From positions 214,358 through 278,357 of the forward strand of contig OY760074.1 in assembly GCA_963663035.1 (NCBI GenBank): a DNA stretch of 64,000 bases, given 5' to 3'. A program made the translations under genes and the position numbers. The stretch is from Acidobacteriota bacterium. GTDB taxonomy: Bacteria > Acidobacteriota > UBA6911 > RPQK01 > JADFOI01. Under the pieces are notes generated by a model. It was not told the origin of the DNA. It worked only from the letters and a program-made list of their open reading frames with translations, and made no database searches. Shown here one piece after another: positions 9,400 to 61,618 of the stretch; positions within the stretch are counted from its first letter, which is position 1; the number at the start of each line of letters is the position of its first letter.

Positions 9400-9465
9400 G
9401 GAGTATAGACGAGTGGGGAAGAAGAAGAAAGAGGGGACAGTTGACTCTCTTCCCTCGTTTGCGTG

Positions 9466-9804
9466 TTAACCAGCGATGATTTCGTTTAGACCTTCGACCA
9501 GTTGATCCAACTCCTCGGGTGGCAGGCGTCCGAGCCTTTTTCCCAGGCGCTTAACCGAAAGCGTACGAACCTGGCTGATCTTGACCCAGGAGGGCGTCTT
9601 CAGGCCACTGAGTCTCACCTGTAATGTGAGCGGAAAACCGGCTTGCTGCGGTTTGTTGGTGAGGGCCATCGCAATGACAGTGCCTGACCTCTCGTTAAAA
9701 ATCTCTTGGCTTATGACCACAACCGGGCGATGGCCCGCCTGCTCATTTCCTTGGACCGGATTAAGGTCCGCCCAGAGAATGTCTCCTCTTAGTACTCGGG
9801 CCAT
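9466..9804 (-). CDS. mazF: MazF/PemK-family type II toxin endoribonuclease
   Basis: 112 aa. [24 protein letters not shown] is the canonical PemK/MazF N-terminus. Confidence 0.8.
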
Positions 9805-10057: not shown

Positions 10058-10255
10058 TACAGCTTCAGCGGCGATCCTTGTAGGAACTCATTTATTTAAC
10101 CCCTTACCCATAACGACTGAGATTGCAGATCTGCGAAGGTTTTTTCCTTAAGGAATATCTGACTTAAGGGATTGGAAATCGAAGGCTAGGCTGCTATTAT
10201 TGAAGAAAGATTAGCGTCTATATGCTCAATCAAGCTGATATCTTTTGAGTTCACC

Positions 10256-21602: not shown

Positions 21603-21616
21603 CTAGGAGGAACATA

Positions 21617-26494: not shown

Positions 26495-28090
26495 ATAGGG
26501 GGACAGAGCAGACCGTACCCATTTCTTTTGTCCCTTTTTTCCCCGCCAGCGCCAGCCTAGAATGCCGGCATACAGAATCAGGGAAACAACTGAGATCCAC
26601 TTCCCGATGCGAAAGCCTGCCGGCGCATACTCGATGCGAAGATGATGATTTCCCGCACCCAGGGGAACGGCTCGCAAGATGTAGTTGGCGGGCAGAAGGT
26701 CGTAATTCTGTTGAACGCTGCCGGGAAGGGCCACTGCTCGCCAGCCCTTGCTGTAGCTGTCCGTAATCAGCAAGATGGCGGGAGCCGGAAGGCGGGCTTC
26801 CACAACCAGATAATCCGTGCCCTCCTCGGTAATGGTGGCGGTACCAGGCCGGTCAGTTTTGACGGGAGCCGGGACAGGAGCAGTTTCCAGAATGACCTGT
26901 TGCCGAGGGTCGAAAGAGGAGTTGCTCATGGTGGCAAAGATGCGGCCGCGCTCCTGAATGAGCACCCAGTCCTGGATCAATTCCAGCCGCGACAGGGGCG
27001 AGGGGATCTCCTCGAAGCCCTGTCTGCCGCCCTCTGAGAAAAATACATAACGACCTCGCAGCATCCCGAAGAGGGGATGGATGCGCGACAGTTCCAGATA
27101 CTGACTAGCGGTCTGAGGGTTCTGGCCCTGGGTAAATGTCATGAACTCGGCATAGCGCTTGAGCACGCCGGGATCATGTCCCCATAGGTCCTGGGCACCT
27201 GTGCTGAGGGCACTGTTCGGGTTGGGGGGCAGTGAAACACGATAATCACCCGGATTGGCTTCGTAGAATTGCTGTATAAGAGGAAGCCGTGTCGTTTCCA
27301 GATCAAAGGTCGGTCTGTTGGCTGTGGCAAAGATAAACATCTCCAAGGCGGCAAGCAACGGTACGAGATACACGGCTCTGGGAGCCACCCGTGTGCGCCG
27401 CAGCAGCAGACTAAAGAGCAGGCATGAAGCGCTGCAAAGGAGCACACCCTTTGCAGTAAACACGCCTGCACCGTTGACAAAGGCTTGGTCTTGATAGCTA
27501 CCCAGTGGCAGATAGGACTCCCCAGTGGCGGCCACCGCTGACATGAGGGATCCCCACGTCCCGCTGAACCCGGAAGCTGCCGAAAGGTATATCCACAGGC
27601 CCACAGCACCCACCGCCAGTCCTGCGAATGACAGTAGCTTTGCCAGACGTTGACGCCAGGGAGGATCGTGCAGGAGATTGTCCAGGCCAATGGCGGAGAG
27701 CATGACGCTGAACATGGCTACCAGAAAAATGAACTTTGAATTGCCCCGAAACATGTCGAATCCCGGTACGGACCTGTAAAGCAGATTGAAGAGGGGTGTG
27801 TAAGTCCCCAGAGCAAGAACCGATAAAATCAGCGTCATGGAGACCGAAGACAGCCGCAGTTTCCGGCTGCCCCGCACAGCTCCCGACACTGCCAGGACAA
27901 AACCAGTCACACCTATGAACAGCGACATCTCCCACAGATACCACCGTCCCCAGTAACTGCTCATGCCGCCGAAGAATCCTGGGACCAGGAGGGTGAGAAA
28001 GTTCTCTGGCGGGAAGGAGAACATGGCCGCAAACGCATAGGATGTTCCGCTGCTGCGTACACTCTCGCCGGCTGCCTCCAGGCCAGCTAG
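26492..28090 (-). pseudogene. YfhO-family membrane protein gene, C-terminal part, split by IS copy 2
   Basis: Polytopic C-terminal region. It continues in frame with the N-terminal part at 29730-30432 if the IS and one CTAG are removed. Confidence 0.6.
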
Positions 28091-29729
28091 CCCGGATTAT
28101 TCATAAATTCTGAAGAAGGGGTCTGATCGAGGGCACAAAAAGATGCCGTACCTCTTTGATATAAAAGGGGTTATGAAACAACTCCAAACCAAAAAGGTAC
28201 GGCCCAGCGATGCATCAGTCTGCCAGATCAACTTGCCATCTCACCCTGACAGAAAAGTGGTGGCTCGATTCGATGGAGGCCGGCTCTCCTCCGATGCCGG
28301 GCTGCTGTGTCTGTACGCCCTGGATCAACAGCACGGACTGACGGCTGGCTTTGCCTCCTGCCTGAAGGACGCTCGAGATAGCCGCTACGTCCGCCACCAG
28401 ATTCGCGAACTGCTCACCCAGCGCAGCTTTCAGATCGTGGCCGGCTATGAGGACTGCAACGATGCCGACAGCTTGCGCTCGGATCCCATCTTCAAGACCG
28501 TGTGTGATCGGCTGCCGGAAAGCGATCCGGATCTGGCTTCTCAACCCACGCTGTCGCGACTGGAGAACTCGGTGGACTCGAAGGATCTCACTCGCCTGGG
28601 ACAGTGGCTGCTGGAGACCTACTTGAAGCACCGCAAGAAGAGCCGGCCCGAGAAGATCATCCTGGACATCGACAGCACGGATGACGTCACGCATGGGCAG
28701 CAGGAGTTCAGCTTTTACCACGGCTATTATCGCGAGCACATGTATCATCCGCTGCTGCTATTCGATGGCGAGACGGGCGATCTGGTATGTGCGCTACTGC
28801 GGCCCGGCAACCAGGGGGCGGCCGCCCACGCGGTGGCGGTTCTCAAACGGGTGGTGGCCCGGATGCGCCAGGTTCTGGGATCCGATGTTCCGATCGAAGT
28901 GCGAGCCGACAGTGGCTTTGCGACGCCGGCACTGTACGAGTTCTGTGAGGAGGAAAAACTGCAGTATGTGGTGGGCTTTGCCCGCAACTCCCGGCTGGCG
29001 GCCACCGTCGAGCCCTTGGTTGAGCAGGTGCAAGCAGACTATGACGACTCAGGAGAAAAGCAACGCCAGTTCACCGAGCTCGTCTATCAGGCCGACAGTT
29101 GGGACCGGGAGCGGCGCATGGTGGCCAAGGTGGAAGTGAGCGAGCGCGGGTTCAACCGTCGCTTTGTGGTCACCAACCGCCAGGATCTCACGGCCGGGCA
29201 GCTGTATGACCACTACATCGGACGGGGCCAGTGCGAGAACTTCGTGAAAGCTTTCAAAAAAGATCTGGCCATGGATCGCTTGAGCTGCCACCGTTTCCTG
29301 GCCAACCAGTTCCGACTCTTCATCCACGCCCTGGCCTATGTCTTAATCCTGCGCCTGCGGGATTACCTGTGCGGGACTCCCTGGCACAACCTGGAGATTG
29401 AGACGCTCCGCCGCCGCCTGTTCAAAATCGGTGCCCGGGTTCGGGAAACTTCTCGTCGCATCTGGGTGCACCTGGCATCGTCTTATCCCGAACAAAAGCT
29501 CTTCGCATTACTGATGCACCGTCTGTGTCCCACCTGACGGTCCCCTGACTCCCTGCGCCAACACAGATATACAGCCCCCTGCGGGCCGAGCTGTTTCCGG
29601 AAGGGGCTCTCGCTTCATCTCTATTCGGCTCAACAAGCTTGGACGCCTTGTAATCGCACCTGAACACACTCTCAGCCCTGAACTTCCGCAGAAAATCGAC
29701 ACTCACCCCAAACTTATGAATAATTGCGG
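28091..29729 (+). mobile_element. Insertion sequence, IS4-superfamily (best fit IS1380 family), copy 2, 1639 bp, flanked by CTAG/CTAG
   Basis: Same IRs and ORFs as copy 1. CTAG at 28087-28090 and 29730-29733. Inserted in the yfhO-like gene. Confidence 0.8.
28143..29537 (+). CDS. DDE transposase (identical to 20016-21410)
   Basis: Protein identical over 464 aa. Confidence 0.85.
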   Translation: MPYLFDIKGVMKQLQTKKVRPSDASVCQINLPSHPDRKVVARFDGGRLSSDAGLLCLYALDQQHGLTAGFASCLKDARDSRYVRHQIRELLTQRSFQIVAGYEDCNDADSLRSDPIFKTVCDRLPESDPDLASQPTLSRLENSVDSKDLTRLGQWLLETYLKHRKKSRPEKIILDIDSTDDVTHGQQEFSFYHGYYREHMYHPLLLFDGETGDLVCALLRPGNQGAAAHAVAVLKRVVARMRQVLGSDVPIEVRADSGFATPALYEFCEEEKLQYVVGFARNSRLAATVEPLVEQVQADYDDSGEKQRQFTELVYQADSWDRERRMVAKVEVSERGFNRRFVVTNRQDLTAGQLYDHYIGRGQCENFVKAFKKDLAMDRLSCHRFLANQFRLFIHALAYVLILRLRDYLCGTPWHNLEIETLRRRLFKIGARVRETSRRIWVHLASSYPEQKLFALLMHRLCPT

Positions 29730-30432
29730 CTAGGGCTGCGGCTCCCACATACATGCTGCCCAATCCCAGCACCAGCCGTGGTCGTTCCCGTGCCCGGATA
29801 AGACGAAGCCCGCTATAGAGCCCGGCGGCGATAGCCGTGTAAAACACATACTGGGGATGGCCGGCAAGAATCTGCATGGTGATGGCAAACATACCCATCA
29901 GACACCAGGTGAAGGAACGTTCTTGGAGCAGGCCATCAATGGCCAGAAAGAGCAGTGGTGCCCATACCATGGCGCAGAGATTGGGGAGGTGCCCGGCAGA
30001 GACATGCAGGAAATAGGGACCGGAGAACATAAAGAGGATGGATGAAAGGAGGCAAGCTGCTGGATGAAGCCCCCGGTGAAAGGTCCAGAGATAGATAAAC
30101 AGCCCGGCCAGGAACACATGCAGCGCAATGCTCACATTAATTGCCTTGGCAAGCGGCAGCACCAGATACACCCAGTTGGGTGGATAGAGCAAGGCGGACT
30201 GAAAGCCTCCAAAGTATGGCATCCCCGAAAAGATGTGCGGATTCCACAGGGCCAGGTTGCCTTGGCCCAGCTGGCTGAAACCAAACTCGCGCCAATAGAC
30301 GAACTGCGAGGACAGGTCGGTGCCCAATTGGGAGAGAATCACCTCTTTCGACGTGAACAGCACATCGACGAACATGAGAAGCGTCAATCCAAAGAGAACC
30401 AGAAGAGCCAGTAGGAAAGTTTTCTCTCGCAT
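29730..30432 (-). pseudogene. YfhO-family membrane protein gene, N-terminal part
   Basis: MREKTFLLALLVLFGL...DLSSQFVYWREFGFSQ...NPHIFSGMPYFGG is the characteristic YfhO N-terminus. The ORF-track extension to 29422 reads into the IS. Confidence 0.6.
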
Positions 30433-41549: not shown

Positions 41550-41903
41550 TGTTAATGACCTCCTAGATGCCTTCTTTGAGCAATTTCCTTACAAATGAGA
41601 CAAGCTTTACTTGAAGGCTTCATTCCGGGATTCTGGCAGCGGGTGTTCAGGGAGGTCAAGATCGAGGCCGCACAAGCCCTTCGACCGCAGGCGTTGCCTA
41701 AGGCTACGTCGAGGATCGAAGGGCGCGGAGAACGAAGAGCTTGGCCTTCCTGGACACCCGCGCTAACCCTGAAACACAAGTCGTACCAATATCTTATCAT
41801 TCACGAAAGAGCTACTCCCAGAGCTGCCAGGCGAGTGACCGAAGTTTGGGCAGAAAACGAAGTCATTGTAAGCTGTGGCGAACGAGAGGGAGATTCTTTG
41901 AGC

Positions 41904-44078
41904 ATGATTAGGCGGTATCTTGGTTTAGGCGTCATTCTGTTCAGCTGGTCTGCGTCCTCTGGACTTGCTGCCCAGGACGGTGCGGTGGAAGGCTCCGCAG
42001 AAAAAGTCACCACGGCTCAACGGATCGACACCAAGCTTGTCATCGATGGCGAACTTGACGAACCCGAATGGGATCTTGTGGAACCTATCAGCGATTTTGT
42101 TCAACAGGACCCGAGCCCAGGCGAGGCCATAACCGAGCGAACCGAGGTTCGAATTCTCTACGATGATGAATTTCTCTACTTCGGTATTTACTGCTTCGAT
42201 TCAGAAGGTGAGGAAGGGATTCTTGTCACCAATTTGCAAAGAGATTTTCGTCCCTTGGACGGCGATGTGTTTAGCCTGCTTCTGGATACTTTCGATGACG
42301 ATCGCAACGGATTTCTCTTGAGTACCAACCCCTTCGGAGCCAAACGCGACACCCAGGTCGGAGAGGACGGAAGGATGAGTAATGGGGATTGGGATGGGAT
42401 CTGGCATGTCCAAAGCAAGATCACTGAAAGTGGCTGGCAAGCGGAAATGGCGATCCCCTTTACGACCCTCCGCTTTCGGAATACAGAAGAGCAGGTCTGG
42501 GGTCTGAACCTCCAACGACGCATCCGTCGTAAGAATGAGAGTGCCCACTGGGCTCCTATTCCACGCCAGTACAGAATCAGTCGCATCTCACGAGCCGGAA
42601 GACTGGAGGGTCTCAGCGGGATCCGGCCCGGCCGCAATCTGTATGTCAAGCCCTATATCAGCATGCCGGTCACGCGTCGGCAGGATGACGACGTCGATTT
42701 TCTTCCCGATGCTGGATTGGACCTGAAGTATGGGCTGAGTTCCGAGTTGACCCTGGATTTGACGGCCAACACAGACTTCTCACAGGTGGAAGCCGATGAT
42801 CAGCAGATCAACCTGACTCGATTCAGCCTCTTCTTTCCAGAGAAGCGGGACTTTTTTCTGGAAAATGCCTCAGCCTTCCAGTTTGGCCCGCCAGGTGGTG
42901 GGGGTCTCCTGGGTGGTTTTCGGGACTTGATTCCCTTTTTCAGCCGACGAATTGGACTTTCCCAGGGCAGTCTCGTTCCGATACTGGGAGGAGCCCGCAT
43001 GACGGGGAAGGTCGGGGACTACACTGTGGGTCTCCTTTCCCTGCAGGACGATGATTTCGAGGGGACTCCCTCTACCAACTTCTCGGTGATGCGGGTGCGT
43101 CGAGATGTTCTCAGCAACTCATCGATGGGAGGAATTTTTGTCAACAAACATGAACTGGACGGTGATTCCAATCGCACCTACGGAGCCGATGTCAATTTCA
43201 GCTTCTATAGGTTTCTGGATGTCTCCACTTTCCTACTCAAGACCGACACTCCCGAATTCCAGGACAAGGATCTGGCCGGCTTTTTCAGGGCCGCCTGGAG
43301 AGGCCCGCTGCTGACGGTCCAGGCAGACCATCTCTCCATTCAAGAAAACTTCAACGCGGAAGTAGGCTTTATTCCCCGTAAAGACATCCGGAAAACAACG
43401 GGAACGTTTGGGATACGGCCGAGGCCCCGCGAGCGGATCCCCTGGATTCGTGAATTCGAACCCTCCATCTCCATGACCTATCTTACCGACCAGGAAAACG
43501 TCCTGCAGACGCGAACCATCAACGGTCGCTTCTCAGTCAGGTTTCAAAATGAGGAACTGATCTGGTTTGCTGCCCAGTCGCGGTTTGAGCTCTTGACTGA
43601 AGACTTCGACATCCGGAGCGATCAGATGATTCCCGCAGGAGGCTATCAGTTCAATGAGTACACACTTTCGCTCCAAAGTAATGCTAGCCGTATGTTCAGT
43701 GGGAGCTTCAGAGCGGTCACGGGAGATTTCTGGGACGGTGAGAAGGACTCCTATCGTTTCAGCTTTCGCTTTCAACCCATGCCCCAATTTCGATCAGAGA
43801 TCACCTGGAGCCACGACGATGTCAGGCTGCCCTCAGGGGATTTTGACACCGAGCTGGTCACCACTCGTCTGAACTATAGCTTCAACCCCAGCATGTTTCT
43901 CAATGCCCTGATCCAGTACAACAGCGATCGGAAGGAGCTCCGCAGCAATATTCGTTTCAATTTGATTCACAAGCCACTGAGCGACTTTTTCCTGGTCTAC
44001 AACGAGCGGAGATCTTCAACGGGAGACGTAGCGGAACGAGCACTCATTGCCAAGGTGACCTACGTCATTGGCCTCTAG
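41904..44078 (+). CDS. Secreted CBM9-like/DUF5916-type protein
   Basis: Start MIRRYLGLGVILFSWSASSGLAAQ (signal). LDEPEW...FLYFGIYC resembles carbohydrate-binding family 9-like modules followed by a large beta-rich domain. The upstream in-frame extension to 41595 has no start support. The TAG stop is part of the MITE flank CTAG. Confidence 0.5.
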   Translation: MIRRYLGLGVILFSWSASSGLAAQDGAVEGSAEKVTTAQRIDTKLVIDGELDEPEWDLVEPISDFVQQDPSPGEAITERTEVRILYDDEFLYFGIYCFDSEGEEGILVTNLQRDFRPLDGDVFSLLLDTFDDDRNGFLLSTNPFGAKRDTQVGEDGRMSNGDWDGIWHVQSKITESGWQAEMAIPFTTLRFRNTEEQVWGLNLQRRIRRKNESAHWAPIPRQYRISRISRAGRLEGLSGIRPGRNLYVKPYISMPVTRRQDDDVDFLPDAGLDLKYGLSSELTLDLTANTDFSQVEADDQQINLTRFSLFFPEKRDFFLENASAFQFGPPGGGGLLGGFRDLIPFFSRRIGLSQGSLVPILGGARMTGKVGDYTVGLLSLQDDDFEGTPSTNFSVMRVRRDVLSNSSMGGIFVNKHELDGDSNRTYGADVNFSFYRFLDVSTFLLKTDTPEFQDKDLAGFFRAAWRGPLLTVQADHLSIQENFNAEVGFIPRKDIRKTTGTFGIRPRPRERIPWIREFEPSISMTYLTDQENVLQTRTINGRFSVRFQNEELIWFAAQSRFELLTEDFDIRSDQMIPAGGYQFNEYTLSLQSNASRMFSGSFRAVTGDFWDGEKDSYRFSFRFQPMPQFRSEITWSHDDVRLPSGDFDTELVTTRLNYSFNPSMFLNALIQYNSDRKELRSNIRFNLIHKPLSDFFLVYNERRSSTGDVAERALIAKVTYVIGL

Positions 44079-44299: not shown

Positions 44300-46003
44300 A
44301 TGAAAATGAAGTTATCGGTTGGACTTTTGGCTACCTTGATGGGGCTGTTGTTGTCTCAGTCCGGGCTTGCCCAGCGGCAACCCGATCCTAATGCAATGTT
44401 CGAGCGACTGGACCAGAACAGGGATGGGGTCTTGACACAGGACGAGCTTCCCGAGCAGCGCCAGGAATTTTTCGATCTGATGCTGCAAAGAGGAGACATC
44501 GACCAGGACGGTCGGCTCACCCAGGAAGAATTCACCGCCAGCCTGAGCGATGCAAGCGGACGTCCCCAGTTCGGCGGCAGGTCTCAACGGGGACGGGGCG
44601 GCGGTCAACCTCGCCCCATGAGGAGGCAGGGCAGGGCTCCCGAAGAGATATTCGAGCAGCTCGACAGCAACGGGGATGGCACAATCACGGCAGACGAAGT
44701 GCCCGAGCAGGCGCAGAGGATTCTGCAGATGGACCGCGATGGTGACGGCGTGATTACCAGGGAGGAGATCTCTCAAGGCCCTCCCGGTGGCCGCTTTGGA
44801 CAGCCCCCAGGTATGGCTCCCGGTGGCCCGGGAGAACGAGCTGAAAGGATGTTCGAGGAGTTGGACAGCAATGGCGACGGACGGGTGACCAAGGAAGAAG
44901 TACCCGACAGGATGGAGCAGTTCCTGGAGCGCTTTGACCGCGATGGGGACGGCATGGTCACCGAGGATGAAGTCTCCGGCCAACCTTTCCAGGGATCAGG
45001 ACCCGCGGTCGGTCAATCTTTGCCCGACCTCCGAGTCTATGACGCCCAGGGCAGGGAATTCCAGTTGAGCAGCCTGAAGGGGAACTATTCGGTTTTGGTT
45101 TTCGGCTGCCTCACCTGACCGCCCTTCTTACGAAACGTCTCCAGTTTGGAGACTATCTACCGCGATTACGCACCTCAAGGTGTCAACTTTTACTATATCT
45201 ATAAAACTCTTGCTCATCCTGAGCTGGACGGCTACATCGAGCCGTTTACGCTCGAGGAGCGGCTGATGCACGTTAAGGAAGCCCAGCGGACACTGGGGAG
45301 CGAGATCACCTGGATCAGTGATTCCATGTCCAATGATTTGAGGCACGCCTTGGGTGATTCGCCCAACTCAGAGTTTGTGGTCGATCCGGCGGGCAAGATA
45401 GTGCGTTTGCGCGCCTGGAGTCGACCCGACGAGCTGCGTAAAGATCTGGAGCAGCTTGTGGGGCCGGTGGAAAATCCCACCAGGGTGTCCGATCTCAACC
45501 TGAAAGTCGAGGCTCCCCCAAAGGTGGCGGCCTCGGGCGTGGTGCCACGAGTGAGGGTTCCCGGCAGGATGTTGACGGTCAGGATCGAGCCGAAGCCGAG
45601 TTCACAGCCCTATTACATGAAGCTGCGAGCTGAAGTGGATCAGCAGTTTCTGCGGGACGGTGAAGGGACTCTGTATGTTGGCTTTCATCCGGATCCCCTC
45701 TACCATGTGCACTGGAATAATTTGGTGGATCCGGTGAAGTATCAAATCACCACACCTGATGGAGTCACCGTGTCGCCGGCAGCGGGTGAAGGTCCCAAGG
45801 TGGAGGAAGCATCGGATATCGATCCGCGTGAGTTCTTAATAGATATCAAGAAGACCGGGGATTCCCAGGATCCGTTGCAATTGGCCGTGCGTTATTTTGC
45901 CTGCAATGACGAGGAAGGCTGGTGTATAGCAGTCTCGCAAGAGTACGCGATTTATCTGGAGCCGGATCGCGACGCCGGCAGGACCTTCCGTCGAGGACGG
46001 TAA
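44300..46003 (+). CDS. Candidate selenoprotein: signal peptide + six EF-hand loops + TlpA/redoxin-like thioredoxin domain with C-L-T-U (TGA at 45116-45118) + about 200-aa C-terminal domain. Alternatively two ORFs (44300-45118 and 45146-46003)
   Basis: The ORFs 44300-45118 and 45146-46003 are in the same frame and separated only by one TGA. The thioredoxin-fold signature GNYSVLVFGCLT-TGA-PPF continues downstream with ...QGVNFYYIY... and ...DSPNSEFVVDPAGKIVRL (cis-Pro and beta-strand region of the TlpA/ResA fold). The downstream ORF has no ATG/SD and starts only with TTG. Confidence 0.5.
45137..45153 (+). other. Hairpin 18 nt downstream of the in-frame TGA, candidate bacterial SECIS apical stem-loop
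   Basis: GTCTCCA-GTT-TGGAGAC, a perfect 7-bp stem with G and U in the loop. Confidence 0.3.
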
Positions 46004-46038: not shown

Positions 46039-47031
46039 TTATGGAAGAACTTTGGCTCGGCCAAGCGTGTTTTTATCGGTCCCGAACCAGATTTCTCCAG
46101 AGGAGCTGTCAAACATCATATGGCGCACGGCGCCACCACCACTTGCAATCTTGGTGACGCTGAAAAACTCTCGTGTCGTCGGATCAAAGCCCACGAACTG
46201 GTTGGGATCAGGACCGGTTTCAACGAACCAGAGTCGGTCGCTCGAGTCCACCGCCATTCCGTAGGGTCTGGAATCAGATCCTCCCGGCGAGACCCATTCT
46301 TCCGCCTCCCCAGTGGTGGGGTCCAGATGGCCCAGGGAGCCTCGAGCATAATCGACATACCAGACCTGGTCATCGGAGGTTACCTGTAAACGGCGAGGGC
46401 GGGCATCTTCATTGGGCAAGGTGTACTCTCTCAGCTTCATGGTTTGCGGATCGACGGTGCCGATCTTGTTGGTTCCCACTTCGGCAATCCAGGGCTGGTT
46501 TTTGGAATCGATGACGATCCCATAGGGACGGGCACTGGGAGTTGTGACCCGAATGAGCTGAATCTCACCTGTGGCAGTGGTCCGCTTGCCGATGAAATTC
46601 CCTCCCTGGACGGTAAACCAAATGTCGCCGTTGCCATCAAACACCATGGTGTGAGGATCCTTGGCCTCAGGATCGGGCATTGGGTATTTGGCAATTTCCC
46701 CGGTCTCAGGATCCAGCCTGCCAATGTGGGCGGCTCGGTTTCCCGAGTACCAAACATCGCCTTCCTTATCCACAATCACATTGTGCGGGCCGGTGCCGGG
46801 TGTCAGGTCAAATTTGGTGAATTCCCCGGTGCTGACATCAAAATTCGCTACATAGTGTGATCGTTGTCCCACAAACCAGACCCGACCCTGGCTGTCGACG
46901 AATGGATCACGGGGCCGGCTGTCTTCCCATGGAACCTCCCACTCGAGGATCTCTATCTCCTTCGCGCTGAGATCCGCAACTCCTGCAACCCAAACCAAGC
47001 TCACCAGAAAAACTGTAGCCAGCTTCTTCAT
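46039..47031 (-). CDS. Secreted six-bladed beta-propeller protein, Vgb (streptogramin lyase)/NHL-like
   Basis: 330 aa. Signal peptide. Repeated G.(V/I)W(F/Y)...G.(I/L)G(R/T)(L/V)DP blades. Confidence 0.6.
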   Translation of the reverse strand: MKKLATVFLVSLVWVAGVADLSAKEIEILEWEVPWEDSRPRDPFVDSQGRVWFVGQRSHYVANFDVSTGEFTKFDLTPGTGPHNVIVDKEGDVWYSGNRAAHIGRLDPETGEIAKYPMPDPEAKDPHTMVFDGNGDIWFTVQGGNFIGKRTTATGEIQLIRVTTPSARPYGIVIDSKNQPWIAEVGTNKIGTVDPQTMKLREYTLPNEDARPRRLQVTSDDQVWYVDYARGSLGHLDPTTGEAEEWVSPGGSDSRPYGMAVDSSDRLWFVETGPDPNQFVGFDPTTREFFSVTKIASGGGAVRHMMFDSSSGEIWFGTDKNTLGRAKVLP

Positions 47032-53349: not shown

Positions 53350-54860
53350 ATAATCGGTTTGTTACCTTATCCTTAAACTATCGGTTTGTTCTAAAGACTA
53401 CCTCGTCGACTGAAAGAGGTTCCGTCAATAAGTGTGTAAATAGACATCAGGCGGCTTTCTCCTGGGTGACTGGGTTGACTGGAACTCCATTGACATATTG
53501 GGCTCCTTGGTAGACATCCTTCATCAAGTGGGGAGCCTTCAAACGGCGAAATCTCTTCTCAGCGACCAGCAGCATCTTCCAGATGACAGCCCGTGCGTTG
53601 GCCACTTTCTTGAACCTTCGAGCAGCATCGGTTCGCAGTCGCAGAGCAGAGAAGGGAGACTCCACTGGGTTGGTAGTCCGCAGATGTTGCCACTGCTGTT
53701 TGGGATAGTTGTAAAACGTCACCATCCGCTCCCAGTCCTGGTCGATCAGATCAGCCGCTGCCTCCAGGCCTCTCTTGCTACACCAATGTTGGAATCGTCC
53801 TTTGACTCGCTCGGCTTCCTGCCGTGTTTCTGCATAAGGGATCTGCCGCAACATCAACAAGGCCGCTTTGTGCCGACTCTTGGGGATCTTGGCCAGCAAG
53901 TTGACGATGCGATGATTCCAGCATCTCTGCTCGTCGGCTTCTGGGAACACGTTGCGCAACGCTCCCCAGATCCCCAGATGCCCGTCAGCGATCACCAGAC
54001 GGGGTGGGTTCATCCCCCGCTCTTTGAGATCCCGCAGCACTGCGGACCAGCTCTGGGTCGATTCTCGATAACCACTACTGACGGACACCACCACTTTAGT
54101 GCCATCACTTAAAGCGGCGATCACTACCAGAATCACGGCCTTCTCCTTCTCCAGCCCTGCTTTGATGTACACGCCGTCCGCCCACAAATACACGACTTCC
54201 AGATCATCCAGCCGACGGCTCTGCCAGGCCTCCATTTCTCCCTGCCACTTCTGTTTCAACCGGGCTACGGTGCTGGGGGACAGCGGCGCTTCTTCCCCTA
54301 AAAGCCCTCTCAAGGCCAGATCGAAATCCCCCTCGGCCAGACCATGTAAATAGAGTTCTGGAATCAAGTCTCGTACCTCTCGCGTTCGCTTGGCAAACAG
54401 CGGCAAGACCCGGCTCTCAAAACGCTCTTCCAGATCCCGCACTCGGGGACGCCGCAGCTTGATCGTTCCGCAACTCATCGTCAGTCGCCGCTCCTTGCCG
54501 TAGCCGTTGCGATAGCCACCGGAGGCGTCCACTTCTCGGCGACGCTCATTCTTTCTTCGTCCCAGCAGCTGTGTCACTTCATCCTCCAGCAGTTCCTGTA
54601 CGTAAAACTGGATCTGCTCTCGCACCCACTCTTCCAGCTGTTCAAAGCAGACTCTTGACTCCACACTGTGATCAATGTTCTTCTTGCTCATGGCGGTGTG
54701 ACTCCTTCCTTTCGGGCTCTTCCGCCCGGGTTTTTATTTTCACCCGGAAGGATAATCACCGCCTGTGCTATTTACACACCTTTTGAGGGTAGCTCCGACT
54801 GAAATGATCGGTTTGCTAGTCGACGAATCTGAACGGCAGAAGAGTAGACTGCTGAGTAGC
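53350..54860 (-). mobile_element. IS256-family insertion sequence (boundaries approximate)
   Basis: Single Mutator-type transposase ORF with about 100-170 bp non-coding ends. The ends share ATCGGTTTG and CGACTGAAA motifs, but clean terminal IRs and TSD could not be resolved by eye. Confidence 0.5.
53447..54691 (-). CDS. IS256-family (Mutator-like) transposase
   Basis: 414 aa. YLWADGVYIK, ALSDG, CWNHRIVNLL and TTNPVESPFSALR motifs are diagnostic of Transposase_mut/IS256. Confidence 0.85.
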   Translation of the reverse strand: MSKKNIDHSVESRVCFEQLEEWVREQIQFYVQELLEDEVTQLLGRRKNERRREVDASGGYRNGYGKERRLTMSCGTIKLRRPRVRDLEERFESRVLPLFAKRTREVRDLIPELYLHGLAEGDFDLALRGLLGEEAPLSPSTVARLKQKWQGEMEAWQSRRLDDLEVVYLWADGVYIKAGLEKEKAVILVVIAALSDGTKVVVSVSSGYRESTQSWSAVLRDLKERGMNPPRLVIADGHLGIWGALRNVFPEADEQRCWNHRIVNLLAKIPKSRHKAALLMLRQIPYAETRQEAERVKGRFQHWCSKRGLEAAADLIDQDWERMVTFYNYPKQQWQHLRTTNPVESPFSALRLRTDAARRFKKVANARAVIWKMLLVAEKRFRRLKAPHLMKDVYQGAQYVNGVPVNPVTQEKAA

Positions 54861-55315: not shown

Positions 55316-55420
55316 TTGGGATTTGGGATTTGTTTGGGATTTGGAATCTCCGACTGTCAGCTGTCAGTTGTCAGCGTTTCGCCGGTCAGCCGGTCAGCCG
55401 GTCAGCCGGTCCAGGGGCAG
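55316..55420. repeat. Three abutting short tandem-repeat blocks downstream of the last opp gene
   Basis: (TTTGGGA)x4 degenerate, (TGTCAGC)x3, (CCGGTCAGC)x4. Not CRISPR-like (no spacers, units 7-9 bp). Confidence 0.6.
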
Positions 55421-56396
55421 GCCACGGCGCGCCCGTTCTTTATTTCCAGAACCGGGTCTTCTTCCGAACAGGAAGGGCGGGCTATGGGGCATCGGGTGTG
55501 AAAGCTGCATCCAGAGGGTTTTCGGATTGGATTCGGTACATCCCCCTCCAGACGGATCCGCTCCTCATGGGTTGCCAGCGGGTCTGGACGGGGAACCGCC
55601 GAGAGCAGGGCCTGGGAATAGGGATGCAAAGGGTTTTTGTAAACACTCTCGCCCTGGCCCAGTTCCACGATGTTTCCCAGATACATGACCGCTATTCGAT
55701 CTGAGATGTGACGCACCACCGATAGGTCGTGAGCAATGAAGATATAGGAGAGATTGAACTCTTCCTGCAGGTCCTGCATCAGATTGACCACCTGAGCTTG
55801 AATGGACACATCCAGTGCGCTGACCGGCTCGTCCGCTATGACAATTTCGGGATTCGTCGACAGCGCCCGGGCGATGCCGATGCGCTGGCGTTGTCCACCG
55901 GAAAACTCATGGGGATAGCGAGCGGCGTGCTCGCCCGCCAAACCCACCTTTTCCAGCAGCCAGACCACCTTATCGCGGCGTTCACTGGCAGAAAAGTCGG
56001 AATGGATTTTGAGAGGCTCCCCCACAATCTGACCGACCGTCATGCGCGGGTTGAGCGAGGAATAGGGATCCTGAAAAATCATCTGAATAGCGGAGCGGTA
56101 AGGACGCATCTGCGACCGGCTTAAGCTGGTGAGGTCCACACTCTCTCCGCCATGGTGATAGAGGATCTCACCCGAGATCTCAACACCATAACTCATGGCA
56201 TGCAGGATGTTGACGATGGCGCGGCCCACCGTGCTCTTGCCGCAGCCCGACTCTCCGACCAGGCCCAGGGTCTCACCTTTGAGAAGATCAAAGCTCATGC
56301 CGTCGACGGCCTTTACCTCGGCAATCTTGCGCAGCAGGACCCCCCCGAAAACGGAAAATCGAACGCGGAGATCCTTGACCTCGAGAATCTTCTCCA

Positions 56397-56397
<1 letters not shown>
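55402..56397 (-). CDS. ABC transporter ATP-binding protein, OppF/DppF-type
   Basis: Walker [18 protein letters not shown] signature, Walker [14 protein letters not shown]-terminal oligopeptide-ABC extension with Cys residues. Confidence 0.85.
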
Positions 56398-57398
<1,001 letters not shown>

Positions 57399-57420
57399 AA
57401 ACGCGCAAGAGGCAAACCTG

Positions 57421-57493
57421 CCCGCAGGCTAAAGCCTGCGGCTCTGATCGGAAGAAACGAGGAACAGTCAGAGCCGTGGGCTTTAGCCCACGG
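57421..57493. repeat. REP-A element (two perfect 9-bp-stem hairpins) inside the opp operon
   Basis: CCGCAGGCT-AA-AGCCTGCGG ... CCGTGGGCT-TT-AGCCCACGG in the 142-bp gap between the D-type ATPase gene and the permease gene. Confidence 0.5.
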
Positions 57494-57540
57494 GCCATCT
57501 TGACCAGGCGACTTCTGAATGATCCGGGCGCTGAGAATTA

Positions 57541-58626
57541 TCATCGCAATCTGGAAAACTCCTTGGGGTCGAAGGCTTCACGAAAGGCTTCCCCAATCAG
57601 GACGACCAGGAGCAGGGTCAGAAAGAGGGCCGCCAGAGGGAAAAAGACCAACCACCACTTGGTCAGCAAACTCATGCCCTGGCCAATCAGTTCTCCCCAA
57701 CTGGGAGTGGGGGCGGGTAGTCCGAATCCCAGGAAGTCCAGGGCCACCAGCGCGCCGATGTTGCCCACGATGGCAAAGGGAGCGAAGGAGACAATCGGAT
57801 TGATGGCGTTGGGTAAAATATGCTTGAACATGATGGTCCAGTCCGATGCCCCCATGGCCAGTGCAGCCCCCACATAGTCTTTGGCCTTTTCACGGTAGAA
57901 CTCCCCCCGGATGTAATAGGTGATTCCCATCCAGCCGAAGGCGGACAAAAGGAAGATCAGAAGCCAGAAGGAGGGCTGCAGCAGCTGACTCCTTCCCGGC
58001 AGGTAGATCGGCACGACGATCGAACTCACGATCATGATGGTGTAAAGAAAGGGAAGGGAGGACCAGATTTCGATGACCCGCTGTCCCAGAATATCCAGCT
58101 TTCCCCCGAAGTATCCAATCAATCCACCCACGGCAATTCCCAGCCCATAGCTGAAGGTGAGAACCAGCACGGCGAAGGTCATCGATATATTGAAGCCATA
58201 GGCGAGCCGCGCGAACACGTCGCGGCCTCGATCGTCGGTTCCGAAGAAATGCTGGAGGGAAGGCTCGTGAGGGGGAACGCCCTCTAGTTCCAGCAGTGAT
58301 TCGTTGGGGTGATAGGGGTAGGGAGGCAGGATGACCCAGTTGCCCTGCCCTGCAGCAGAGAACTGATCCTTCAGTTGCCGGTAGTCCGGTTCGCCGATCG
58401 CCTCCAGGCCGAACTCCTCGGGACCGTAAAAGCGCAGCATGGGAAAGAAGTATTCGCCCTCATATCGCACCAAAAGCGGCTTGCTGTTCACGAGGAGGGG
58501 CAGTACGAACGAGATCAGGTAGGCGGCCACAATGATCAGGAAGGAGTAATAGCCCCGCTTGAGACTGCGGAACTTCCGCCAACGCTTGCGGAAGATGGAT
58601 AGGGAGGGGGGCGGCACCTGGTTCAT
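57541..58626 (-). CDS. ABC peptide transporter permease, OppC/DppC-type with long N-terminal periplasmic extension
   Basis: 361 aa. FGTDDRGRDVFARLAYG and the EAA-like region in the second half. Start overlaps the upstream gene. Confidence 0.8.
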   Translation of the reverse strand: MNQVPPPSLSIFRKRWRKFRSLKRGYYSFLIIVAAYLISFVLPLLVNSKPLLVRYEGEYFFPMLRFYGPEEFGLEAIGEPDYRQLKDQFSAAGQGNWVILPPYPYHPNESLLELEGVPPHEPSLQHFFGTDDRGRDVFARLAYGFNISMTFAVLVLTFSYGLGIAVGGLIGYFGGKLDILGQRVIEIWSSLPFLYTIMIVSSIVVPIYLPGRSQLLQPSFWLLIFLLSAFGWMGITYYIRGEFYREKAKDYVGAALAMGASDWTIMFKHILPNAINPIVSFAPFAIVGNIGALVALDFLGFGLPAPTPSWGELIGQGMSLLTKWWLVFFPLAALFLTLLLVVLIGEAFREAFDPKEFSRLR

Positions 58627-59657
58627 TATCGAAACCGTATCCGCGGGTCGACGAACACGTAGATGACGTCCGAGATAATATTGCCCAACAGCATGAGAAG
58701 ACTGGAAATGACCACGATGCCCAGGGCCACCGGATAGTCTCTTTGCAGGATCGAGGTATATCCCAGATAGCCCATTCCGTCGATATTAAACACCTTCTCG
58801 ATCAGAAAGGAGCCGGCCAGAATCAGGCTGAAGAAGTGTCCCAGACCGGTGGCGATGGGGATCAGGGAATTTCGCAGGGCATGCAAAAAGATCACCCGCC
58901 GCTCACTCAAGCCCTTGGCAAAAGCGGTTCGGACATAGTCTTGTCCCAGGTTCTCCAGCAGCGAGTTCTTGGTCAGGATAGTGAGGGTGGCAAAGGAGCC
59001 GATCATATAGCAGACCACGGGAAGAAACATGTGGTGAAGCTGGGCCACGATTTTCTGGCCGAAATTCAAGAATTCCCAATTAGTGGGTCGGAAGCCGCCC
59101 AGGGGAAAGAAATCCCAGAAGCTTCCCCCTCCCAGAAACACCAGTAGGGCGGTCCCCAGTGCCCATCCAGGAATCGAGTAGCCCAGAAACACAATGAAGC
59201 TGGTGCTGAAATCGAAGCGCGATCCGTGTCGAATCGCCTTGAAGACCCCCAGGGGCACGCAAACCAGATAGCTCAGCAAAAAGCCCGTCAGTCCTAAGAA
59301 TATGGAGACGGGGAAGCGCGATTTGATCACATCCCATACCGGCTCCTGGTAGATGTAGGATCGACCCAGATCGAGCCGCACCACGTTCCAGAGCCACTGG
59401 GCATAGCGAATAGCGACGGGCTTGTCGAAACCGTAGTATCGCCTCATCTCCTCCAGCGCTGCTTCAGGAATACCGGTATCCAGCCTCAGCCCTCCGCCGC
59501 TGGCCCCGCCCTCCTCAGCCAGCGCCATCTGGTAGCTCATGATCCTGCGTTCGATGGGGCCGCCCGGGACGAAGTGCATGATCAGGAAGACGGCCAGTGT
59601 GATGCCCAAGAAGGTGGGAATGACCAGCAGGAACCGGCGGATGAAGTAGGCTGTCAT
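58626..59657 (-). CDS. ABC peptide transporter permease, OppB/DppB-type
   Basis: 343 aa. MTAYFIRRFLLVIPTFLGITLAVF N-terminus. Typical 6-TM OppB layout. Confidence 0.8.
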   Translation of the reverse strand: MTAYFIRRFLLVIPTFLGITLAVFLIMHFVPGGPIERRIMSYQMALAEEGGASGGGLRLDTGIPEAALEEMRRYYGFDKPVAIRYAQWLWNVVRLDLGRSYIYQEPVWDVIKSRFPVSIFLGLTGFLLSYLVCVPLGVFKAIRHGSRFDFSTSFIVFLGYSIPGWALGTALLVFLGGGSFWDFFPLGGFRPTNWEFLNFGQKIVAQLHHMFLPVVCYMIGSFATLTILTKNSLLENLGQDYVRTAFAKGLSERRVIFLHALRNSLIPIATGLGHFFSLILAGSFLIEKVFNIDGMGYLGYTSILQRDYPVALGIVVISSLLMLLGNIISDVIYVFVDPRIRFR

Positions 59658-61618
59658 GGGGTTTCTGTGGTATTGGTCTGCTGCTCGACTTGAGCAAAGT
59701 CCAGCCAGTACCGATCTTCTGATGGGCCGACTTCCAGTTGAATGTCTGGATCACGCTGGGCCTGATCGAACTGCTCTAGTCTTTCCGGGTCGATCCACCA
59801 CACTGAGGGAATGTCTGAGTAGTCCCCGATCCTGGTGAAAGTTCCTTCGGGGTATCCAAATTTATTCAAGTACACGACTCGCTTAAAGGGGGCCGTCCAT
59901 TCCAGAATGTAGGGGTAGAGATTGGCCAGGATGCCATCAATCTCCCGAACGGCGGCAATGCGCTCATCCAGGTCGAACATCTCGTTATAGGCCTCGGTGA
60001 TTTCATCGATTCTACGATTTTTGATCCCGGTGATATTGTTGGTACCGTTCGGATCGGCCAGTGAAGAATGGTATTCGACCTCCGGATTCGGGAAAAGCGA
60101 TCCGCCCCATAACATGGAGACCATCTCAAACTGTCTGTCCAGGACGAGCTTCCACTGGGCCTCCGGTGTCACCAGCCGCAAATTCAGGGTAATTCCTACT
60201 TTCCTCAAGTCTTCCTGGTACACGGTGAAAATTCTTTCCGAGGTCTGGGAACGGTAAAGGAGCTCTATTTCCAAGGGCTGGCCATTTTTCACCAAGCGCC
60301 CTCTTTCGTCCCGATTCCTCCAGCCCGCCTCGGCCAGCAAATTCAGGGCGAGTTCCGGATCGTATAAGACTACGGGATTATTGGGGTTCTCATAGACGCC
60401 GCCGGCATAGTGGGAGTTCTGCAGCTGGTACTCGTTGTACATCAGCTTTTCGATCAGCTGCTCCCGATTGAAGAGGTGAAAGAGGGCCTTTCGCACCCGG
60501 ATGTCGTCATAGGGTACTCTGCGCATATTGAATGCCAGACCCTGTACTCCGATAGCATCGTGATTGAAGATCTTCCGTTTTTGAATTAAACCTCTTTGTA
60601 TCCGATCGAAATCCAGCTCCTCCACCCACATTTGGGCGCGGTTGACTATGTAGTAGTCGAGATCGCCTTTCTTGAACATTTCAAACTCCAGATTGCGGTC
60701 TCGAACCACGATTTCTTTGACCTGCTCAAAGTTATACAGGCCCACATTTCGACGATGTTTTTCCGCCCAGTAATCCTGGCGCTTGCGGAGCGTCAAAGAG
60801 TTTCCCTTGTCGATATCTTCTTCCCGAACGAGGTAAGGGCCGGTGCCGGGAAGCATCTTGAAGTTGTAGTCACGGAGGTAGGTGGCTGCGTCCACATCTT
60901 TCAGGACATGGGCCGGGAAGAGCTGCAGCGAAGTTGAAAAAAGGAGGAAGTTCTGCCAGTTCACTTTGGCGCTATTGACCCGAACGATATATTTGCTCTC
61001 GGCAACGGGTCTTTCGAACTTACTCCAAACCATCTGATCCATCGGTGACTGCAATCCCTCATCCATGCTCAGATCCCAAGAAGCTACAGCGTCCTCGGCC
61101 GTGACCGGCTGGCCATCGGACCAGCGGGCATTGGGGTTGATTCGGAAGCGAAAGGTCATTTTATCGGGGGAGATTTGCCAGTGGGTGGCCAGGGCGGGGA
61201 TGTATCCCATGGTGGTGGGATGCAGGCCCAGCAGCGTCTCGTAGACCAACGCCCCCAGCACATAGTAGTTTAGGGAGGTATTCGATTCCGGCCCCACCAT
61301 CCGCATTGTGCCGGGAAAAGACCCTATTGGCTCCCTGAGCAATCCCCCCTTCACGGCGCGAGGATCCCCAATGAAGTCAAACTCCGTATTGGTCTCCCAG
61401 CCCTCACCGGTGAAGCCCCTGCCTCCCTGCTCGGCAGAAACGGCCGGGTCTGCCCCGGCATCCGCATCCGGAAAGACCGGATAGTCGTTCTTGTCCATGG
61501 AGACCGGACCTCGGGGCTCCAGGCCGGGTGCTGATCCACCCCCGCCTATATCCAAGTAACTGCAGCCCAAGGCCGCCAAAAATCCACTCATCAAACAAAT
61601 GTATAGGACTTTGCGCAT
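59654..61618 (-). CDS. Large family-5 (peptide/nickel/opine) substrate-binding lipoprotein, YejA/OppA-like
   Basis: 654 aa. Lipobox LAALGCS. SBP_bac_5 fold features. Stop/start overlap with the B-type permease gene. Confidence 0.8.
   Translation of the reverse strand: MRKVLYICLMSGFLAALGCSYLDIGGGGSAPGLEPRGPVSMDKNDYPVFPDADAGADPAVSAEQGGRGFTGEGWETNTEFDFIGDPRAVKGGLLREPIGSFPGTMRMVGPESNTSLNYYVLGALVYETLLGLHPTTMGYIPALATHWQISPDKMTFRFRINPNARWSDGQPVTAEDAVASWDLSMDEGLQSPMDQMVWSKFERPVAESKYIVRVNSAKVNWQNFLLFSTSLQLFPAHVLKDVDAATYLRDYNFKMLPGTGPYLVREEDIDKGNSLTLRKRQDYWAEKHRRNVGLYNFEQVKEIVVRDRNLEFEMFKKGDLDYYIVNRAQMWVEELDFDRIQRGLIQKRKIFNHDAIGVQGLAFNMRRVPYDDIRVRKALFHLFNREQLIEKLMYNEYQLQNSHYAGGVYENPNNPVVLYDPELALNLLAEAGWRNRDERGRLVKNGQPLEIELLYRSQTSERIFTVYQEDLRKVGITLNLRLVTPEAQWKLVLDRQFEMVSMLWGGSLFPNPEVEYHSSLADPNGTNNITGIKNRRIDEITEAYNEMFDLDERIAAVREIDGILANLYPYILEWTAPFKRVVYLNKFGYPEGTFTRIGDYSDIPSVWWIDPERLEQFDQAQRDPDIQLEVGPSEDRYWLDFAQVEQQTNTTETP

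Follow-up and report, generated by a model that had tools for sequence, protein, structure and literature searches.

Does the TGA codon at positions 45116-45118 of a 64,000-nucleotide stretch of an Acidobacteriota contig (OY760074.1; the whole stretch is hereafter called the window) end a gene, or is it translated within a longer one? A first-pass annotation, made from the sequence alone, had proposed translation, in the form of a multidomain CxxU selenoprotein, and this proposal was strongly supported by the conservation of the TGA across genomes, the existence of cysteine forms, a covarying RNA hairpin, and a protein fold that runs across the codon. The apparent stop most likely encodes selenocysteine (Sec, U) in one 567-residue secreted redox protein. 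In our view, the best explanation of the locus, held with considerable confidence, is that one exported gene product of four modules is made and that its UGA is recoded to Sec by the bacterial route that depends on a selenocysteine insertion sequence (SECIS). The gene is a mis-annotated selenoprotein gene and part of a known, computationally predicted family.

A single forward-strand frame covers 44300-46003, is interrupted solely by the TGA at 45116-45118, and ends at a TAA at 46001-46003. The upstream open reading frame (ORF; 44300-45118, 272 aa) has the terminus ...GNYSVLVFGCLT before the TGA, after which the frame continues with PPFLRNVSSLETIYRDY... (in a longer reading, PPFLRNVSSLETIYRDYAPQGVNFYYIYKTLAHPELDGY...) and runs uninterrupted to the TAA; the first-pass annotation was therefore right that two ORFs share a frame with only the TGA between them. 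Public gene calls on both source contigs, which carry the identical TGA, cut this one frame into 'hypothetical' ORFs of 272 and 285 aa. The earliest start-type codon 3' of the TGA is a TTG at 45146. No in-frame ATG occurs for approximately 50 codons after the TGA (none before ...ERLMHV), and no Shine-Dalgarno-like sequence lies ahead of the TTG, in agreement with the earlier statement that the downstream ORF could start only on TTG. TGA is the commonest stop in the window and terminates 9 of its 17 profile-confirmed genes; the genetic code is thus standard, and a non-standard code was rejected on this ground. Around the TGA at 45116, 299 codons are open on one side and 294 on the other, and none of the 74 mechanical matches obtained as other TGA read-through candidates in the window was comparable to it. 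The features of the gene are the following, all on the forward strand.

44300-46003, forward strand: one coding sequence read through its UGA (Sec at codon 273), 567 codons long without the stop, based on the single frame.
44300-44371, forward strand: predicted Sec-type (secretory) signal peptide (MKMKLSVGLLATLMGLLLSQSGLA, then Q), read from the sequence, with a putative cleavage site.
44411-44971, forward strand: six canonical EF-hand Ca2+ loops in three pairs, from Pfam, with the loops located by regular expression.
45008-45480, forward strand: thioredoxin-fold redox domain, deiodinase/peroxiredoxin-like, spanning the UGA and containing VFGCLTUPPF and YIYKTLAHPELDGY.
45107-45109, forward strand: Cys270, the first residue of CxxU, present in every listed Sec-form locus and in all redox-active Cys forms.
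45116-45118, forward strand: UGA most likely decoded as Sec (U273), with TGA in 79 of 80 genomes and Cys in the homologous proteins P0063 and P0110 and at least 31 other cluster representatives.
45136-45154, forward strand: SECIS-like hairpin within the coding sequence, with a perfect 7-bp stem (45137-45143 with 45147-45153) and a GUU loop.
45485-46000, forward strand: C-terminal immunoglobulin (Ig)-like beta-sandwich (DsbD_N/PF11412-like) with the motifs KLRAE, LYLGFHxDPxYHVHWNN, and DxDPREF.
45902-45925, forward strand: Cys535-x6-Cys542 (FACNDEEGWC), on either side of the turn that joins the last two predicted beta-strands.

A scan for genomic relatives with one genome per species gave 80 loci, and a TGA stood in register with 45116-45118 in 79 of these 80 related species-level genomes. 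They comprised Acidobacteriota, Planctomycetota, Latescibacterota, Verrucomicrobiota, Kiritimatiellia, Poribacteria, Krumholzibacteriia, and Omnitrophota metagenome-assembled genomes (MAGs), corresponding to at least seven phylum-level lineages, and many members came from marine or sediment MAGs. Approximately 30 residues were conserved on each side of the TGA among those loci, with the flank consensus ...LKGxYTVLVFGCLT-U-PPFLRNV[SP]xLETxxRDYAPKGVxFYYIYKALAHP..., and the closest 80 genomic relatives were nearly all Sec forms. Neither an error nor a pseudogene can account for this pattern. As a separate observation, the frame of one Acidobacteriota homologue with 83% identity (locus L038) is interrupted by an additional stop shortly before the active site, at approximately 10060-10105 (...QAE, stop, LKGDYSVLVFGCLT-U), and what follows is cut down to 212 codons; the cause is probably an indel error in the assembly or else decay of the copy.

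A protein search with the redox and C-terminal regions retrieved 1246 relatives. The best matches nearly all begin a few residues past the TGA column (METIYRDY..., MRNVSRLETIY...), as would be expected of gene calls cut short at a Sec codon. P0063 and P0110 span the site as single proteins and carry GCLTC at the column, so that the TGA takes the place of the second Cys of a CxxC motif (C270-L-T-U273), as the first-pass annotation had claimed. When the Cys form P0063 served as query in an exhaustive HMMER search, the family proved large, with 187 clusters (50% identity, E <= 1e-30), and approximately 44 of the best 150 matches start 2-27 residues after the Sec column. Together with 55 fetched relatives, P0063 and P0110 formed a site-spanning set of 57 proteins, in which the column residue was Cys in 42 and Asp, Asn, Ala, Thr, or Glu in the others; orthologues with Cys at the aligned column, proposed earlier as a check, are therefore at hand. 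All 42 Cys-x-x-Cys representatives carry Cys at the Sec column, and 31 hold all four Cys. The module is also found in repeated form: P0121 (808 aa) contains two complete units of CxxC domain plus sandwich in one chain, and at locus L091 (1-2063), an 833-aa EF-hand/deiodinase-like gene is directly followed by the paralogue P0141.

The RNA downstream of the codon carries the hairpin GTCTCCA-GTT-TGGAGAC (45137-45153), which starts 18 nt past the TGA, as had been noticed at first pass, and has a fold energy of -12.8 kcal/mol in the window. The alignment used for its analysis covered 63 nt from the TGA in the window and the 79 loci and was gap-free. Across the family, the consensus stem has eight pairs (columns 21-28 with 32-39), one of them U-A or C.A, and carries the apical loop (A/G)GU(U/C)U, whose G29 is invariant. 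In the stem columns, 90.3% of cells were paired, and the covariation score was 0.216 versus 0.139 +/- 0.007 for shuffled alignments, none of the 500 shuffles reaching the observed value; a SECIS-like structure thus stands above background. All measures but one dropped when the 3' arm was slid; the exception was the number of doubly changed cells, which was 33 at slide -1 versus 27 in register. Compensatory changes were observed at pairs 21-39 (CG 41, GC 17, UA 3, AU 2, UG 2, other 14), 24-36 (CG 74, UA 4, UG 1), and 23-37 (UA 64, UG 14, CG 1).

Synonymous sites within the stem-loop were nearly frozen. The third-codon-position entropy was 0-0.6 bits in codons 7-11 after the UGA and 0.9-1.9 bits outside the stem-loop (six codons before and nine after). 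Within the stem-loop codons, Val was GUC in 72 of 77 cases and Glu was GAG in 75 of 79, the Ser/Pro codon always ended in C, the loop Ser was always AGU, and Leu was solely UUG or CUG. The hairpin position was fixed across all Sec forms. Five Cys-form genes that were read as DNA encode similar residues by other codons and lack the stem, P0063 coding NVRSLEA as AAC GUG CGC AGC CUA GAG GCG. The mean local folding energy was -6.0 kcal/mol in these five Cys forms versus -9.0 in the 79 Sec forms, a comparison drawn from a small Cys-form sample (n = 5), one of which (L089) has an unrelated hairpin of equal strength.

A bacterial SECIS is recognized by a small apical loop containing G, on a stem-loop immediately 3' of the UGA (PMC1088965). 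The hairpin resembles the E. coli fdhF SECIS in lying within the ORF directly 3' of the UGA and in its apical G-U (...CA-GGUC-UG... in fdhF versus ...C-(A/G)GU(U/C)U-G... in the family); unlike fdhF, it has a shorter stem (7-8 bp), often a C.A mismatch, and no bulged U. The program bSECISearch allows 16-37 nt between the UGA and the loop, and the position found here (+29) falls inside this range. On the comparative evidence, the hairpin is a SECIS element.

The protein fold likewise crosses the codon. With U replaced by C, the Pfam AhpC-TSA profile matched residues 237-367, crossing residue 273 (E 1.6e-7, 31.8 bits, cutoff 26), and its scores ranged from 31.8 to 34.1 bits; Redoxin was borderline (24.5-26.3 bits versus a cutoff of 26.6). 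Among ten relatives, AhpC-TSA was passed by nine and Redoxin by seven. The T4_deiodinase profile (PF00837, cutoff 27) gave the window protein 21.0 bits at full length and 24.7 bits for the domain only, both below the cutoff; of ten family members, two passed (27.8 and 29.0 bits) and eight scored 18.6-26.4 bits. The NCBIfam model NF038285 (deiodinase_rel) scored 101.9 bits versus a cutoff of 250, with the match covering positions 174-321 of the 347 in the model; this relates the protein to the family but does not make it a member of that equivalog. Because T4_deiodinase and NF038285 remain below their cutoffs while AhpC-TSA passes, the redox domain is, as judged from its sequence, deiodinase-like and not a strict member of the animal deiodinase family. 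In phmmer searches against the PDB, the best match was mouse Dio3 (type III deiodinase; 4tr3, E 4.5e-5), followed by ResA-type oxidoreductases. The Dio3 alignment places VLNFGSCT(U->C)... against VLVFGCLTUPPFLRNVSSLETIYRDYAPQGVNFYYIYKTLAHPELDGY, with T-U-P-P-F and AHPxDG[WY] shared. The first-pass annotation had described a redoxin domain on a thioredoxin/TlpA-like fold that crosses the TGA and had named a Redoxin or AhpC-TSA match across the stop as a check; the crossing fold and the match were both found, and the assignment as a redoxin stands in the refined form of a deiodinase-like domain.

Two structure models were used, namely an AlphaFold2 model of the natural Cys orthologue P0063 and a separate model of the exact C-terminal domain of the window protein. 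The P0063 model (predicted local distance difference test, pLDDT, 82) consists of one thioredoxin fold followed by a beta-sandwich. Its top Foldseek match was the C-terminal region of DipZ (2hyx), which we take to be a DsbD-type protein whose C-terminal region comprises a thioredoxin-like domain and then a second domain. The best superposition was obtained with ResA (template modeling score, TM, 0.84; 14-16% identity), and Dio2/Dio3 gave TM 0.70-0.74 at 20-21% identity, with approximately 181 of 183-188 catalytic-core residues aligned. The peroxiredoxin-type motif is given as PxxxTxxU in PMC13188914. This peroxidatic context (PxxxTxxC/U) is absent here: SVLVFGCLTU has Thr at -1, Cys at -3, and no Pro at -7, and a classical peroxiredoxin was accordingly rejected. 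The site is a true CxxU site, and its Cys at -3, where the aligned Dio3 has Ser, points to selenenylsulfide chemistry.

The C-terminal region, which had been called an unknown domain at first pass, is indeed a further domain and could be identified: the model of the exact window sequence is an Ig-like beta-sandwich (pLDDT 88.6) with weak similarity to DsbD_N (PF11412; 22.9 bits versus a cutoff of 25, E 9e-5, profile positions 9-114 of 119). PF11412 is precomputed for the homologues P0033, P0034, P0038, P0040, P0044, and P0055. The redox residues of the mature protein are C270, U273, C535, and C542 only, and both C535 and C542 were invariant in 75 aligned homologues. In the 57 site-spanning relatives, all four redox residues were retained in 31, the second active-site residue and both sandwich cysteines were gone together in 14-15, and the sandwich Cys pair without the active-site pair was held by none. 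The co-loss of both pairs offers the best evidence for a coupling of the two centres.

Two further observations concern the sandwich. The motif LY(L/V)GFHxDPxYHVHWNN (approximately 45680-45730 in the window, residues 461-474), KLRAE, and DxDPREF are strikingly conserved; Sec and Cys forms retain their His, Asp, Trp, and Asn residues with little or no variation, some of which are altered in a redox-dead branch, and the conserved motif may represent a ligand or metal site. The redox-dead branch (P0218, P0220-P0222, P0226, P0228, P0229, P0232, P0238, P0242, P0246, and P0255) has the active site GDLT[DN]P.F in place of GCLT[CU]PPF, and its sandwich cysteines are replaced. In its members, the module is fused to a long N-terminal region that repeats the motif 'GGA(I/V)...' and resembles a right-handed beta-helix; an EF-hand pair is still found at the C-terminus of most of them. 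Their sequences suggest a non-catalytic binding role for the two-domain module in this branch.

The N-terminal part of the window protein agrees with the earlier description of a secreted protein with six EF-hand loops ahead of the redox domain. A positively charged N-terminus followed by a hydrophobic run was found in 67 of 75 complete homologues. The loops occupy residues 38-49, 66-77, 122-133, 145-156, 189-200, and 213-224, with Gly/Pro/Arg-rich linkers, and the Pfam profiles EF-hand_1 (86.4 bits), EF-hand_5 (85.4 bits), and EF-hand_7 (66.6 bits) were all above cutoff, marking predicted Ca2+ sites. Among 73 complete loci, EF-hand loops were N-terminal only in 8, C-terminal only in 25, on both sides in 4, and undetected in 36; the closest Acidobacteriota relatives of the window protein belong to the N-terminal-only group. 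This varied placement identifies the calcium module as a recurrent, movable accessory. The family core, as far as sequence comparison defines it, is the signal peptide, the CxxU domain, and the beta-sandwich.

These parts give strong support to a single gene and to recoding of its UGA by the standard bacterial route. The hairpin at 45136-45154, with its loop G at +29, would recruit SelB-GTP-Sec-tRNA(Sec) to the ribosome, where the UGA would be read as Sec. The product would be a 567-residue exported protein consisting of the signal peptide, three EF-hand pairs, the C270-L-T-U273 domain, and the C535/C542 beta-sandwich. By analogy with known systems, it may act as an extracytoplasmic, Ca2+-dependent, two-centre selenol/thiol oxidoreductase, an assignment that we make tentatively and rate slightly below an even chance. 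Sec273 would be the attacking nucleophile and would form a selenenylsulfide with Cys270. Electron exchange could then take place between the sandwich disulfide and the Sec centre, in the way that DsbD passes electrons between its Ig-like alpha domain and thioredoxin-fold partners, so that the sandwich relay would link the active site to an external reductant or substrate; such an internal relay is suggested by the analogy with DsbD. The EF-hands would make activity, folding, or localisation dependent on Ca2+.

Several results weigh against this account. Neither a tRNA-Sec nor a selA, selB, or selD gene turned up in the 64-kb window, which is part of a contig of at least 1.2 Mb, or in approximately 1.1 Mb of homologue flanks. 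ARAGORN returned no tRNA gene at all in the window and no tRNA-Sec in 60 homologue loci, an NCBIfam scan of 20 window ORFs returned no sel gene, and when E. coli SelA, SelB, and SelD served as tblastn queries on the window and all loci, the only matches were BipA-type GTPases; these searches covered the window and the homologue flanks and say nothing on the rest of the genome. In the hairpin, the single-sequence fold z was -2.1 only, and 8 of 200 shuffles folded equally well; as a lone sequence, it is modestly better than chance, and the comparative evidence lifts it well beyond. An Infernal search with SECIS models had been suggested at first pass; the Rfam scan gave no family on 45080-45220 at E <= 10, nor in the window at gathering thresholds, an outcome that is uninformative in that no SECIS model matched. 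The loop G lies at +29 here versus +23 in fdhF (G-U at +23/+24). Within approximately 8 kb around the homologues, neither DsbD/CcdA nor any other neighbour was conserved, the best ORF cluster occurring in 10 of 80 loci. Finally, the sandwich Cys pair is missing from three distant relatives that do have CxxC. The weak SelB matches of the tblastn search lay in Kiritimatiellia, Verrucomicrobiota, and Omnitrophota MAGs (L050, L052, L067), in GTPase genes at approximately 8824-9708 on the reverse strand, immediately upstream of the selenoprotein gene. The ORF was read in L050 only, where the copy includes a masked run of N, and it is a BipA/TypA-type GTPase and not SelB.

Against this background, other ways of accounting for the codon can be weighed. 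If the TGA were a true stop, the locus would hold two genes, one for a secreted 272-aa EF-hand protein that stops halfway through a thioredoxin fold and the other for a separate 285-aa protein initiated at TTG 45146. Public pipelines call the source contigs and almost all homologues in this way, and no stop is commoner in the window than TGA; yet the fold and the Pfam match cross the codon, neither half contains a complete active site, the downstream piece lacks both an ATG and a Shine-Dalgarno sequence, the TGA and both of its flanks are in register in 79 of 80 genomes across phyla, and the Cys forms are single proteins, all of which leaves the two-gene arrangement very improbable. The first-pass annotation had itself raised the possibility of a sequencing or assembly error, and a pseudogenising change of TGC or TGT belongs with it, as TGA is one base from either and L038 has an apparent extra stop or frameshift upstream. 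With the same TGA in 79 independent assemblies from different studies and in the two source contigs, a frame that is otherwise intact, and a conserved, covarying RNA hairpin just downstream, this explanation is effectively refuted by the comparative data and retains next to no probability. Translation of the UGA as a standard amino acid (Trp, Cys, Gly, or Arg), by hairpin-stimulated near-cognate suppression or a reassigned code, would fit the lack of Sec machinery in the window and the homologue flanks searched, and downstream hairpins can also stimulate read-through. It is nevertheless highly unlikely, given that TGA ends many confirmed window genes and the code is not reassigned, that homologues have Cys at the redox-active column, forming a classic Sec/Cys pair, and that the loop has the SECIS-type G. 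Moreover, the TUPPF context is that of deiodinases, the 4tr3 chain being deposited as a SeCys->Cys mutant, and bacterial deiodinase-like selenoproteins are an accepted predicted family.

Granting Sec at codon 273, the role of the protein can also be read differently. It could be a true deiodinase-type reductive dehalogenase that acts on iodinated or brominated phenolics in the periplasm, rather than a general thiol-disulfide oxidoreductase; a Se-halogen intermediate would then be resolved by Cys270 and afterwards by the sandwich pair. The best PDB sequence match is Dio3, with T-U-P-P-F and AHPxDG[WY] in common, the Dio2/Dio3 cores align at 20-21% identity versus 14-15% for ResA, and many members derive from marine or sediment MAGs. 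However, T4_deiodinase is below cutoff in the window protein and in eight of ten members, whereas AhpC-TSA passes in nine of ten; the residue at -3 is Cys here and Ser in the aligned Dio3 chain; the Dio3 Glu (IEEAHP) is not kept (KTLAHP here); and no substrate-related neighbours are conserved, so we regard dehalogenation as unlikely. The fuller form of the idea, a Ca2+-dependent periplasmic selenoenzyme that acts as a real deiodinase and whose selenenyl intermediate is recycled via the Cys-pair beta-sandwich, is likewise given a low probability. If it were true, this Acidobacteriota/Planctomycetota family would be a prokaryotic counterpart, perhaps an ancestor, of the thyroid-hormone deiodinases, and there would be an unrecognised Sec-dependent route in marine halogen cycling. 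The module could instead be mainly a Ca2+-dependent binding or structural unit, or a metal or metalloid site with Sec and Cys as ligands. A sizeable branch without all four redox residues retains the two-domain module, the C-terminal EF-hand pair, and beta-helix-like N-terminal fusions, and the His, Asp, Trp, and Asn motifs of the sandwich (GFHxDPxYHVHWNN) could form a binding site; but CxxU on a thioredoxin fold, Sec/Cys exchange, and co-loss of the pairs are typical of redox catalysis, and Sec is costly and usually retained for catalysis. A purely ligating function therefore also seems improbable, and a selenol/thiol oxidoreductase remains our preferred reading.

The genes that flank the selenoprotein gene encode a DUF5916 protein, a Vgb-like beta-propeller, and a flavin adenine dinucleotide (FAD) oxidoreductase. 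The first (41595-44078, forward strand) is an 827-aa protein with Pfam DUF5916 and no NCBIfam match. The second (46039-47031, reverse strand) is a 330-aa beta-propeller with a signal-peptide-like N-terminus, and it resembles the streptogramin B lyase Vgb at 134.7 bits, far under the family cutoff. Neither is conserved beside homologues elsewhere. The window also contains mobile elements. Two direct copies of a 1648-bp element of the insertion sequence family IS1380 lie at 19960-21607 and 28087-29734, and their ORFs, each for a 464-aa transposase (399.7 bits), are identical but for one base. With a spacing of 8127 bp, the copies could bracket the genes at 21.6-28.0 kb as a composite transposon. 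An IS256-family transposase (53447-54691, reverse strand; 286 bits) has a 645-aa ORF without annotation on one side and, on the other, an operon for an Opp/Nik-type ABC (ATP-binding cassette) transporter (55402-61618).

The first-pass annotation had considered the architecture undescribed, which does not hold in view of the literature. A 2005 study of the Sargasso Sea described deiodinase-like selenoproteins with a bacterial SECIS (4 Sec and 6 Cys sequences; Zhang et al., PMC1088965), the 2008 Global Ocean Sampling (GOS) data contained 22 Sec and 21 Cys sequences of this kind (PMC2398784), and the deiodinase-like family is listed in a 2026 inventory of 119 prokaryotic selenoprotein families (PMC13188914). 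In 2021, a 'deiodinase-like protein fused with EF-hand domain' was described, together with, among marine selenoproteins, a peroxiredoxin (Prx)-like fusion with Pfam11412 (PMC9402790). The window protein shares with the bacterial deiodinase-like selenoproteins the in-frame UGA in a PF00837-like thioredoxin fold, the Cys homologues, the SECIS loop G, the fusion to an EF-hand pair (PF13499), and an aquatic or marine metagenomic origin. It differs in that the family motif is UxxC (PMC13188914), whereas the window clade has C-x-x-U with no Cys after U; in that a Cys-pair beta-sandwich is mentioned only for the 'Prx-like + Pfam11412' fusion (PMC9402790); and in that six N-terminal EF loops mark a small Acidobacteriota clade, most relatives having C-terminal EF-hands or none. 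The window protein joins all three modules and, when compared by description, very probably belongs to what the authors of PMC9402790 saw. New here are the family SECIS consensus with covariation, the near-universal Sec in the closest clade, the tri-modular architecture, and the co-loss of redox residues.

Other systems resemble the window protein in part. The deiodinases Dio1-3 (4tr3, 9h48) have a native Sec active site (deposited as SeCys->Cys), a peroxiredoxin-like thioredoxin fold, and the motifs FG..T-U-P-P-F and IY...AHP.DG[WY]; unlike the window gene, which has a bacterial-type SECIS within the ORF, theirs is in the 3' untranslated region, and they are membrane-anchored, whereas the window protein is predicted to be exported and soluble, with EF-hands and a beta-sandwich, and is not expected to use thyroid-hormone substrates. 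DsbD, DipZ, and ScsB (1jpe, 2hyx, 6c29) likewise pair an extracytoplasmic thioredoxin-fold domain with a second domain, which here is an Ig-like beta-sandwich with a putative redox Cys pair. They differ in domain order and sequence, the PF11412 score stays under its cutoff, and the match in fold lacks specificity; the window protein has no membrane (CcdA-like) domain in itself or nearby, and its thioredoxin-fold centre is proposed to form a selenenylsulfide, not a disulfide. TlpA/ResA/CcmG and AhpC/TSA-Redoxin proteins share the exported thioredoxin fold with a C-x-x-C-type site at the N-terminus of helix 1, whereas the window protein is 14-16% identical to them, has no WCxxC or PxxxTxxC context, places Sec second, and contains additional domains and an insertion shared with deiodinases. 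The eukaryotic SELENON, whose motif is SCUG, is alike by analogy only, in combining an EF-hand with a thioredoxin-like Sec centre in an oxidising, Ca2+-rich compartment; it differs in its single EF-hand, its eukaryotic SECIS, and its nature as a membrane protein of the endoplasmic reticulum. SELENON is described in the literature as a Ca2+ sensor tuning redox activity.

Overall, the locus does not overturn current knowledge, as CxxU thioredoxin-fold selenoproteins, bacterial deiodinase-like proteins, and the EF-hand fusion are already published. No experimental study of any family member was found in the papers searched, and the SECIS consensus, the co-loss in the 'dead' branch, and the movable EF-hand modules provide concrete handles for experiments. 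With corrected gene models, the proteomes of several little-known phyla would gain an exported redox protein that contains Sec.

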